This document shows positions 39,101 to 42,100 of a stretch of 64,000 bases of DNA, piece by piece. The position numbers are program-made. How positions within the stretch are numbered: position 1 is the first letter of the stretch; each line of letters begins with the position of its first letter. This DNA comes from Escherichia coli (GTDB lineage: Bacteria > Pseudomonadota > Gammaproteobacteria > Enterobacterales > Enterobacteriaceae): assembly GCF_024502345.1 (NCBI RefSeq), contig NZ_JALDNN010000002.1. The stretch is one strand, 5' to 3'.

Positions 39101-42100
39101 CCACCTGCTGACAGTCGAAGCACTGGAAGCCGCATTCCTCTCCCTGAGCAGGAAAGCGGCCGCCGGAGTGGATGGCATCAGGTGGATGGACTACGCCGGA
39201 AACATGAAGAACAACATAACAGATCTGCACCGGAGGCTACATCAGGGCAGCTACAGGGCGCAGCCCGGCAGGCGTCACTACATCCCAAAAGCGGATGGAA
39301 AACAACGCCCGCTCGGCATCGCCTCGCTGGAGGACAAGATCGTCCAGTATGCGCTGGTGAAAATCCTGAACGCAGTCTATGAAAACGACTTTATGGGGTT
39401 CTCATACGGGTTCAGACCCGGGCGAAGCCAGCACGATGCACTGGACGCACTGGCCACAGGGCTGGTACGCACTAACGTAAACTGGGTACTGGATGCCGAC
39501 ATCAGTCAGTTCTTCGACAGGGTGAGCCACGAATGGCTGATCAGGTTCACAGAGCATCGGATCGGCGACCGGAGCGTAATCAGGCTCATACGTAAGTGGC
39601 TCACAGCCGGGACGTTGGAGGAGGGTCAATGGCGAGCAACGGAGGAAGGCACCCCACAGGGTGCGGTCATCTCACCGCTGCTGGCAAACATATACCTCCA
39701 CTACGTCTTCGATCTGTGGGCGCATCAGTGGCGACGTCGCTATGCCACAGGCAATGTGGTAATGGTCAGATACGCCGATGACATCGTCATCGGGTTCGAC
39801 AAACGATACGATGCCCGGCGCTTCCGTATAGCCATGCAGCGCAGACTGAGGGAGTTCGGACTCACGGTTCACCCGGAGAAAACCCGTCTGATGGAGTTCG
39901 GCCGCTTCGCTGCCGAAAACCGTGCCATCAGGGGAAAAGGCAAACCAGAAACGTTCAACTTCCTCGGGTTCACGCACATCAGCGGGAAAGATCGCAACGG
40001 CAGGTTCATGCTGATACGAAAGACCCGCCGGGATCGGATGACGGCAACTCTGAAAGCCATCAAAGACGGTCTGCGAAGGCGCTGGCATTACTCAATCCCC
40101 GAACAGGGAAAATGGCTCAGGAGAGTGGTTCAGGGATACCTGAACTATCACTCGGTACCGGGCAACTTCCCCACCATGCAGAAGTTCAGGACACACGTAA
40201 CAAACCTCTGGCGCCGGGCGCTCAGGCGCAGGAGCCAGAAGGATGATACGACCTGGACGAAAGCAAACAAACTGGCAGCCGCATGGCTACCAAGGGTTCG
40301 GGTTCTTCATCCATGGCCTGTGGAGCGGTTCACCGCCAGACACCCGAGGCAGGAGCCCGGTGCGTAAATCGCGCACGCCGGGATCTGTGCGGGGGGTATC
40401 CGGTAACGGGTATCCCTACCGCGACATATTTAACAGCGTGACGATAATCCAGATCGCCTGCCGGATAATGGTGCCAACTTACTGATTTAGTGTACGATGG
40501 TGTCTTTGAGGTGCTCCAGTGGCTTCCATCTCCATCAGTTGTCCCTCCTGCTCAGCTACTGAAGGCGTGGTGCGTAACGGTAAAAGTACTGCCGGACATC
40601 AGCGCTATCTCTGCTCTCACTGCCGTAAAACATGGCAGCTACAGTTCACTTACACCGCCTCTCAGCCCGGTACGCACCAGAAAATCATTGATATGGCCAT
40701 GAATGGCGTTGGATGCCGGGCAACCGCCCGCATTATGGGCGTTGGCCTCAACACGATTTTACGTCACTTAAAAAACTCAGGCCGCAGTCGGTAACCTCAC
40801 GCATACAACCGGGCAGTGACGTCATTGTCTGCGCGGAAATGGACGAACAGTGGGGCTACGTCGGGGCTAAATCACGTCAGCGCTGGTTATTTTACGCCTA
40901 TGGCAGGATGTGCAGGACGGTGGTGGCACGCGTCTTTGGTGAGCGTACTCTGGCCACGCTGGAGCGTCTTCCGGGCCTGCTGTCGGCCTTTGAGGTCGTG
41001 GTATGGATGACGGATGGCTGGCCGCTTTATGAATCCCGCCTGAAGGGAGAACTGCACGTTATCAGCAAGCGATATACGCAGCGAATTGAGCGGCATAACC
41101 AGAATCTGAGGCAGCATCTGGCAAGGCTGGGCAGGAAGTCACTGTCGTTCTCAAAATCGGTGGCGCTGCATGACAAAGTCATCGGGCATTATCTGAACAT
41201 AAAACACTATCAGTAAGTTGGAGTCATTACCAACCAGTTCACCACCTACTCGCTCCGCGATTGTGGCAGTCTTCGAAATCCCCGGACGATCCGCCTTTAT
41301 GAAAGTCTTGCTCAATTCAAATCTTCAGGCTTATGGGTTACTACTCATGCTTGGTTAAATGACCGTTTCGTCTTACCGGAATCCCAGCAGAAGAACTTGG
41401 CAGAGTTGAAACGATCTTTCCTTGATCCTGCACTCAAGCAGATAAATGAGAAAACACCTTTACTTGCTAAGTATAGTATTGATGATTCAGGAAAATTTCT
41501 GTTCTCAATAATTGATAAGCAAAATCCCGTCTGACATAAATCAGCACACATGAGCCTGTCATTTGACAAATTTTTGTCATGAAGATGGGCGGATTTCCAC
41601 ACAGCACCGGCGCCCGGTAAGGTGGGCGGATTCCCACACGGCACCGGCGCCCGGTAAGGTGGGCGGATTCCCACACGGCACCGGCGCCCGGTAAGGTGGG
41701 CGGATTCCCACACGGCACCGGCGCCCGGCAAGATGGGCGGATTTCCACACAGCACCGGCGCCCGGTAAGGTGGGCGGATTCCCACACGGCACCGGCGCCC
41801 GGTAAGGTGGGCGGATTCCCACACGGCACCGGCGCCCCGCAAGATGGGCGGATTTCCACACAGCACCGGCGCCCGGTAAGGTGGGCGGATTTCCACACAG
41901 CACCGGCGCGCGGCAAGGTGGGCGGATTTCCACACGGCACCGGCGCCCGGCAAGGTGGGCGGATTTCCACACAGCACCGGCGCCCGGCAAGGTGGGCGGA
42001 TTCCCACACGGCACCGGCGCGCGGCAAGGTGGGCGGATTCCCACACGGCACCGGCGCCCGGCAAGGCGGGCCGATTCCCATATCGACATGTATGTAGCTT

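Follow-up and report, generated by a model that had tools for sequence, protein, structure and literature searches.

A 37-bp tandem repeat array behind an IS1-truncated repA gene in Escherichia coli is very probably an orphaned group I iteron set of an IncN1 replicon

What is the long array of 37-bp direct repeats that follows the 3′ end of a replication initiator gene in Escherichia coli contig NZ_JALDNN010000002.1, and does it still act? The question arises in a 64,000-nucleotide stretch of this contig that was analyzed as a whole and is referred to here as the window. The original prediction placed 13 tandem copies of a 37-bp unit with an internal dyad at 41587-42082, likened their position to that of the copy-control iterons in F and P1, and also entertained a sopC-like centromere. 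The features of the locus are listed in Table 1.

Table 1. Features in and around the 37-bp repeat array (positions in the window)
Feature	Position	Strand	Remarks
IncR-type context	umuC 36772..38043; group II intron reverse transcriptase 38880..40367		umuC, umuD, group II intron reverse transcriptase, IS1, IncN remnant
IS1 (complete, IS1X3-like, 768 bp)	40464..41231	+	terminal inverted repeats 40464..40486 and 41209..41231
IncN1 repA 3′ remnant	41235..41534	+	residues ~140-239 of 239 plus stop codon (41532..41534)
Spacer, 47 bp	41535..41581	+	repA stop codon to first iteron; identical in R46
Very probable IncN1 'iteron I' / group I iteron array	41582..42080	+	13 full 37-bp units plus core-only 14th
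Truncated CUP (conserved upstream repeat), CUP6 of IncN1	42099..42278	+	collinear by blastn with R46 downstream of iterons
IS110-family 5′ fragment	42279..42704	-	ends the IncN1 remnant

The predicted repeats were recovered with a register that differs by 5 bp. TRF returned a single array at 41582..42080 with a period of 37, 13.5 copies, 93% matches, no indels and a score of 823, and the repeat search of the window found the 37-bp spacing to be strict across the array. When read in register from 41582, the 13 full units (41582..42062) each show 0-4 mismatches to the consensus AAGGTGGGCGGATTCCCACACGGCACCGGCGCCCGGC and the 14th unit comprises the first 18 bp only (42063..42080). The dyad string ACCGGCGCCCGGT, for which 0.05 matches per window are expected by chance, occurs without mismatch in six of the 13 units; ACCGGCGCCCGGC, in which C is the last base, is present in four further units and the remaining three diverge more from ACCGGCGCCCGGT. 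Thus, many units carry the near-palindrome that had been attributed to each of them, but the exact string is restricted to six. Long open reading frames cross the array (e.g., 41345..42064, 41577..42365, and 41881..42636), where the GC-rich repeats contain no stop codons; these frames were not regarded as genes. An assembly artefact can be dismissed, as the E. coli plasmid NZ_OY754835.1 matches the full 1,051-bp module (41235..42285) in one ungapped piece, also with 13 units.

The gene that precedes the array is the 3′ part of an IncN1 repA. In tblastn with the RepA protein of plasmid R46 (239 aa; WP_000359513.1), residues 138-239 were covered at 98% identity, and the segment translates without interruption for 99 residues up to the stop codon. 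As full-length R46 RepA possesses the Pfam domains Rep3_N (10-165) and Rep3_C (178-228), the alignment bears out the original prediction that a fragment of a Rep_3-family gene lies ahead of the array. The fragment scored below the cut-offs of the NCBIfam RepE and RepM models, with 55 bits compared to 342 bits for RepE, a threshold that is out of reach for any 99-residue fragment. The same tblastn query found no second RepA match in the window, and an intact IncN RepA is absent. The open reading frame at 40713..41216 within the adjoining IS1 matches the NCBIfam IS1 transposase model, and a repA junction identical to that in the window was found in other plasmids in which the insertion sequence is annotated IS1X3. 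Insertion of IS1 took away the 5′ 58% of IncN1 repA together with the promoter and the upstream iterons, and blastn detected no counterpart in the window of R46 31743..32156. As the remnant has neither a start codon nor a promoter, it is judged to be non-functional from its sequence. The spacer that leads from the repA stop codon to the first iteron holds an inverted repeat, TGACAAA-TT-TTTGTCA, that was noted at 41564..41579 by direct reading.

The window was compared by blastn with R46 (NC_003292), which served as the IncN1 reference. Positions 41229..42278 are collinear with R46 32157..32960 at 89-96% identity: 41229..41821 aligned with R46 32157..32749 at 96.5%, and 41841..42278 with R46 32510..32960 at 89%. 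Multi-unit stretches of the two plasmids share 92-96% identity. In R46, an intact repA (L002:25743..26462) is followed by a 47-bp spacer, 6.5 copies of the 37-bp unit, a GC-rich region, and resP on the opposite strand, and the R46 unit consensus, AAGGTGGGCGGATTTCCACACAGCACCGGCGCCCGGC, differs from that of the window at two positions. Iterons of 37 bp downstream of IncN1 repA also are described elsewhere (PMC6052338, PMC6288184, PMC9769515, PMC5027574), with copy numbers of 3-31 (PMC5027574, PMC6288184, PMC9769515, PMC6052338), among them 5 (PMC6288184), 28 (PMC9769515), and 3 or 7 in intact IncN1 plasmids (PMC5027574). The period and the GC-richness of the array, both of which initially were considered unusual, are standard for IncN1 plasmids. 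A passage in PMC9412624 that cites Papp & Iyer 1995 refers to the 37-bp repeats as 'the RepA-binding site'.

The array shares with the IncN1 group I iterons the 37-bp period, the unit sequence, the position, orientation and spacer, the CUP downstream, and a core that also is common to the upstream iterons. There is little doubt that it represents the group I ('iteron I') iteron set of an IncN1 replicon of the R46/pKM101/pCU1 type, which here is orphaned. A match to a characterized repeat family with an assigned function had been named at the outset as an outcome that would refute the original prediction, and the IncN1 group I iterons provide that match. The feature is already known: these are IncN1 iterons within a defunct piece of a replicon that was severed by IS1, and such pieces are common, described plasmid debris.

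The very GC-rich segment beyond the array (42083..42290 in the original prediction, where it was left unassigned) also can be identified. Positions 42099..42278 match the post-iteron region of R46 and, at 85-86% identity by blastn, three more R46 copies (23465..23658, 24806..24985, and 26016..26202), and therefore constitute a copy of CUP. A passage in PMC5027574 credits CUP elements to Delver & Belogurov 1997, and CUP6 is named at the position after the iterons (PMC9769515, PMC6052338, PMC10654068). Homology with R46 ends at 42278 by blastn. The open reading frame 42181..42660 on the reverse strand corresponds to the first 117 of the 343 positions in the NCBIfam IS110 transposase model, and 42279..42704 is matched by 447 plasmids, nearly all at identities of at least 99%, with the annotation 'IS110 family transposase'. 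Together with resP, the remainder of CUP6 was lost to the IS110-family element, and the truncation at 42279 accounts for the absence of resP from the window. IS5075, which is reported in the literature to be inserted downstream of IncN iterons, was tried as the identity of this segment and rejected, as there was no match of >150 bp to the IS5075 copy of pEC96-94kb.

Which part of the 37-bp unit is recognized by RepA can be approached through a second repeat set that R46 carries upstream of repA, at L002:25553..25658, in which a 22-bp unit is repeated ~4.8 times. When read on the opposite strand, the five repeats (AAGGTGGGCCAATTCCCA, AAGGTGGGCTAATTCCCA, AAGGTGGGGTGTTTCCCA, TAGGTGGGCCAATTCCCA, and AAGGTGGGCGGATTCCCA) agree with the 37-bp unit at its positions 1-18 (AAGGTGGGCnnATTyCCA) and bear no likeness to positions 20-37 in which the dyad sits. 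The partial end unit consists of this 18-bp core only, both in R46 and in the window. The window array contains 14 copies of the putative core site, one orientation being maintained throughout, and no core sites were found in the window outside the array. Units also were compared across seven arrays that provided 43 distinct units, including a diverged lineage with the unit AAGGTGGGCCGATTCCCACGCGGCAGCGGCGCCCGGC. Within the core, 13 of the 18 positions are invariant among these units; conservation is 93% or higher at positions 1-3, 5-9, 11-14, and 16-19, most of which are invariant. Positions 4, 10, and 15 are the most variable in the core, and the dinucleotide by which the upstream repeats differ from one another includes position 10. 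At dyad position 26, 20 of the 43 units have C and 23 have G, whereas the partner of this position, position 36, never changes. The dyad thus is not maintained as a dyad.

These patterns suggest that the RepA binding determinant likely corresponds to the initial 18 bp of the unit, and not to the dyad that had been put forward as a typical dimer-binding site: the core in common with the upstream repeats occupies positions 1-18, and the dyad arm varies without compensation. Rep_3 monomers, such as RepE, pi, and pPS10 RepA, contact ~19-22 bp per iteron, which a core of 18-19 bp fits. The GC-rich 19 bp that contain the dyad appear to act mainly as a spacer. This half of the unit is fairly conserved in its own right, with 11 of the 18 positions between 20 and 37 at 93% or above in the 43 units, and might have a role besides spacing.

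Where the IncN1 replicon is functional, RepA, a Rep_3 protein, would bind as a monomer to the 37-bp direct repeats just downstream of repA, and the second set of five 22-bp repeats ahead of the gene bears the same core. The spacer half would set the repeat at 37 bp (~3.5 helical turns), compared to 22 bp (~2 turns) in the upstream set. In 1990, Krishnan and Iyer reportedly found that pCU1 can replicate without its 13 repeats, although these affect copy number, incompatibility, and PolA dependence. The downstream array is expected to take part in replication and copy-number control, as incC does in F, and participation in both processes is stated in passages of PMC6052338 and PMC12361487 that cite Krishnan & Iyer 1990.

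A functional IncN1 replicon comprises an intact repA, its promoter, and the upstream iterons, whereas the window retains RepA residues 138-239 only. As there is no intact IncN repA and there are no core sites beyond the array in the window, the array is an orphan. The replicon is best regarded as dead, IS1 having removed the first ~139 codons of repA, the promoter, and the upstream iterons, and the IS110-family element having deleted everything past the first ~180 bp of the adjoining CUP. What remains would be an orphan block of 14 RepA sites that travels as a passenger on an IncR-type backbone in the order umuDC, group II intron, IS1, delta-repA, and iterons. The resident initiator of the window is the product of another Rep_3 gene (35485..36378, reverse strand) that has its own, unrelated 21-bp repeats (TTTCCCGTTTCGACACACCTT), and there is no sign in the sequence that this gene uses the IncN array. 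The array presumably is inert in cis. The only plausible activity would be the binding of RepA supplied by a co-resident IncN1 plasmid, which through titration or handcuffing could lead to incompatibility. On one molecule, pEC96-94kb, 32 orphan units are found alongside an intact IncN repA with 4 units, and any titration effect therefore is tolerated when other replicons drive replication.

It is conceivable, but unlikely, that the orphan array still fires as an origin when IncN1 RepA is provided in trans, such that the host plasmid is co-replicated by a resident IncN plasmid. Fourteen intact putative RepA core sites are left, and a weak DnaA-box-like sequence (TGTGGATTG, 42109..42117) that agrees with the consensus TGTGGATAA at 7 of 9 positions follows the array as in R46. 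Moreover, several origins, DnaA boxes, and a RepA-dependent oriS are described for pCU1 in a passage of PMC7826253 that cites Krishnan & Iyer 1990 and Zoueva et al. 2003. However, the window lacks both the upstream iterons and the sequence 5′ of repA, and an AT-rich unwinding element adjoining the array was not identified.

Matches to the module are common. The 1,051-bp module was matched by 2,116 of 72,556 PLSDB records, with 1,335 matches extending over at least 80% of its length and with Klebsiella, Escherichia, Enterobacter, Salmonella, and Citrobacter as the main hosts. For positions 41000..43000, a coverage of 80% in one place was not reached by any PLSDB record. Array length was assessed in a sample of 20 plasmid records, in which the 37-bp unit follows repA in R46 and in the 19 other plasmids. 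The sampled arrays range from 3 to ~40 units, with 38-bp units in some. Six sampled plasmids share with the window an identical junction between IS1 and repA(138-239), and these seven sequences possess 3, 8, 13, 13, 14, 17, and 27 units. Thus, a single insertion event was followed by rapid change in length through slippage or unequal recombination, or the differences partly reflect assembly error. The idea that arrays are short in functional IncN replicons and expand in orphans was rejected. IncN-only plasmids with an intact repA carry 6 (R46), 26 (pE25b), ~32 (pMTY13773_IncN), ~36 (pMNBM072), and ~40 (pF404-4) units, compared to 3 to 32 in the orphan arrays of the sample, and array length therefore does not track replicon integrity. 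The arrangement umuDC, ltrA, IS1X3, delta-repA of the window likewise is present in pGPT21-003_1 (E. coli; IncR, IncY), with 13 units, and a 'region N' composed of IS1X3, delta-repA, and iterons has been linked to many IncR plasmids (PMC9412624).

Such retention raises the question of whether selection keeps the array on IncR-type plasmids, where it would serve as a RepA sink and destabilize competing IncN1 plasmids, a proposal that is quite improbable. The IS1::repA junction and the array indeed are retained in many IncR and other plasmids, a distribution also evident in PMC9412624, and cloned iterons classically exert incompatibility, as established for F, P1, RK2, and R6K. But the spread from 3 to 27 units at the junction looks like drift rather than maintenance, plasmids typed as IncN+IncR carry orphan and functional modules together, and hitch-hiking beside the IncR backbone accounts for retention equally well. 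For orphan IncN1 arrays with 14 or more RepA sites to serve as anti-plasmid decoys that lower the copy number of, or displace, IncN1 competitors seems a poor prospect.

A sopC-like partition centromere, at which a ParB-type protein would bind as a dimer through the dyad of each unit, is scarcely credible: the long tandem array and the short near-palindrome in many units fit this scheme, but the exact dyad is found in a minority of units, changes in its arms are not compensated in related arrays, the unit core recurs in the repeats before repA, the literature gives the repeats to RepA (PMC9412624), and the native IncN1 array is flanked by repA and CUP6/resP, parA and parB being absent from its vicinity. 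Accordingly, neither an inverted repeat conserved in every unit nor an adjoining parA/parB (sopAB) operon, both of which typify sopC, was observed. Stability of the IncN type instead is due to stbABC with its own 11-bp repeats (PMC3098194), and this array of StbA-type, centromere-like repeats, which belongs to an IncN-like block, is located separately in the window at 43567..43727, upstream of stbA.

The orphaned IncN1 iteron set is of small significance beyond annotation. Its recognition as a dead fragment guards against classing the plasmid as an IncN multi-replicon because of a partial repA, and also against taking the array for a new centromere or regulatory element. The range of 3 to 27 units at one ancestral junction points to fast length change, and repeat copy number in short-read assemblies requires caution. 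That the 18-bp core, rather than the eye-catching dyad, is the likely RepA site is a modestly useful point.

Among known systems, the array most resembles iteron I of R46, pKM101, and pCU1 in unit, 37-bp period, 47-bp spacer, orientation, and downstream CUP. In contrast to these plasmids, the array in the window is orphaned, with repA cut by IS1 and the upstream iteron group absent; its 13.5 copies, compared to 6.5 in R46, are inside the range of 3 to ~40 found in other plasmids. Plasmid pST1023 has a similar remnant of IS1X3, delta-repA, and 37-bp iterons that adjoins the IncR group II intron (retA/ltrA), but with 24.3 copies of the repeat (PMC9412624), and the right boundaries differ, CUP6 of the window being cut at 42279 by the IS110-family fragment. 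The likeness in position to F incC and P1 incA that was proposed originally was upheld by the assignment as IncN1 iteron I downstream of a Rep_3 gene: F and P1 similarly possess iterons on the promoter side of rep and an auxiliary array with a common core beyond the gene, and their initiators belong to the same Pfam family as IncN RepA. However, the IncN iteron sequence is unrelated to those of incC and incA, its 37-bp unit combines an 18-bp core with a 19-bp GC-rich spacer, and IncN arrays far exceed them in length and vary more in repeat number.

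The junction between IS1 and the repA remnant at window positions 41229..41235 was identical in six of the 20 sampled plasmids (L007, L008, L009, L012, L018, and L020) and retained residues 138-239 of the replication protein RepA. The carriers were typed variously as IncR, IncR+IncY, IncFIA+FIB, IncX1, and IncN+IncR, and the shared junction was accompanied by 3 to 27 of the 37-bp iteron units. The occurrence of an identical junction in differently typed plasmids points to a single ancestral insertion of IS1 that was spread by recombination, and the unit counts point to an array whose length changes rapidly.

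Longer arrays of ~32 to 40 units were noted in the IncN arrays of pCTXM65_090011, pMNBM072, pMTY13773_IncN, and pF404-4 (L014 to L017, respectively), in which occasional 38-bp units or short gaps shift the register. The repA gene that precedes the array in pCTXM65_090011 aligned with RepA of the IncN1 reference plasmid R46 over residues 97-239 only. The other three plasmids are IncN-only with intact repA genes; thus, a very long array does not preclude a working replicon. A weak DnaA-box-like sequence, TGTGGATTG, which agrees with TGTGGATAA at seven of nine positions, was observed at 42109..42117, ~30 bp past the last iteron. The sequence is conserved in R46 (~26787 in that record) and might be part of a reported pCU1 origin.

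The resident replicon of the IncR-type backbone was located at 35392..36517, where repeats flank a 297-aa open reading frame that produced no matches in an NCBIfam search. A tandem array at 33934..33982, in which the octamer AACAAGAT is repeated perfectly six times, lies ~300 bp from the end of the ParA-family gene; the IncR par system may use this array as its partition site. Elsewhere in the window, the two IS30-family transposase genes are equal in length, have identical NCBIfam scores, and are in inverted orientation. The pair flanks two open reading frames (48509..48970 and 48954..50984) which matched no NCBIfam family.

Features annotated in the window
Feature	Position	Strand	Remark
IS26, four copies	23997..24819, 27011..27838, 31231..32050, 61848..62673		
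ParA-family gene	34282..34911	-	
41-bp repeat, 2.3 copies	35392..35485		Flanks 297-aa ORF
297-aa ORF	35485..36378	-	Weak Pfam Rep3_N match (E 2.1e-5)
Five 21-bp repeats, TTTCCCGTTTCGACACACCTT	36413..36517		Flank 297-aa ORF
138-aa ORF	42815..43231	-	Position matches R46 138-aa hypothetical protein upstream of stbA
stbA	43787..44173		NCBIfam StbA_2 (E 2.9e-61)
Partial IS1	~44369..44907		Cuts off IncN-like block
IS30-family transposase gene, copy 1	46409..47560	+	
IS30-family transposase gene, copy 2	51285..52436	-	
Type I restriction HsdR gene	52519..55296		Adjoins IS30-flanked segment

A second IncN-like block at 42705..44366 is more diverged than the repA and iteron remnant, with 89-90% identity to R46 (19458..20312 and 20733..21118) and 93% identity to pEC96-94kb, a plasmid with an orphan array and an intact IncN repA gene. 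The origin of this block differs from that of the 96%-identical remnant. Besides the 138-aa ORF, the block includes stbA and the intergenic region that is the expected site of the IncN oriT. A short distance upstream of stbA, the 9-bp repeat ACTACA(A/G)AT recurs with 11-bp spacing in three clusters (3 + 5 + 5) at 43567..43727. The centromere-like array that belongs to the IncN-like block is this one and not the 37-bp array. The arrangement matches that of stbDR in plasmid R388, in which the StbA-binding 9-bp repeats form two sets of five with 2-nt spacers (PMC3098194).
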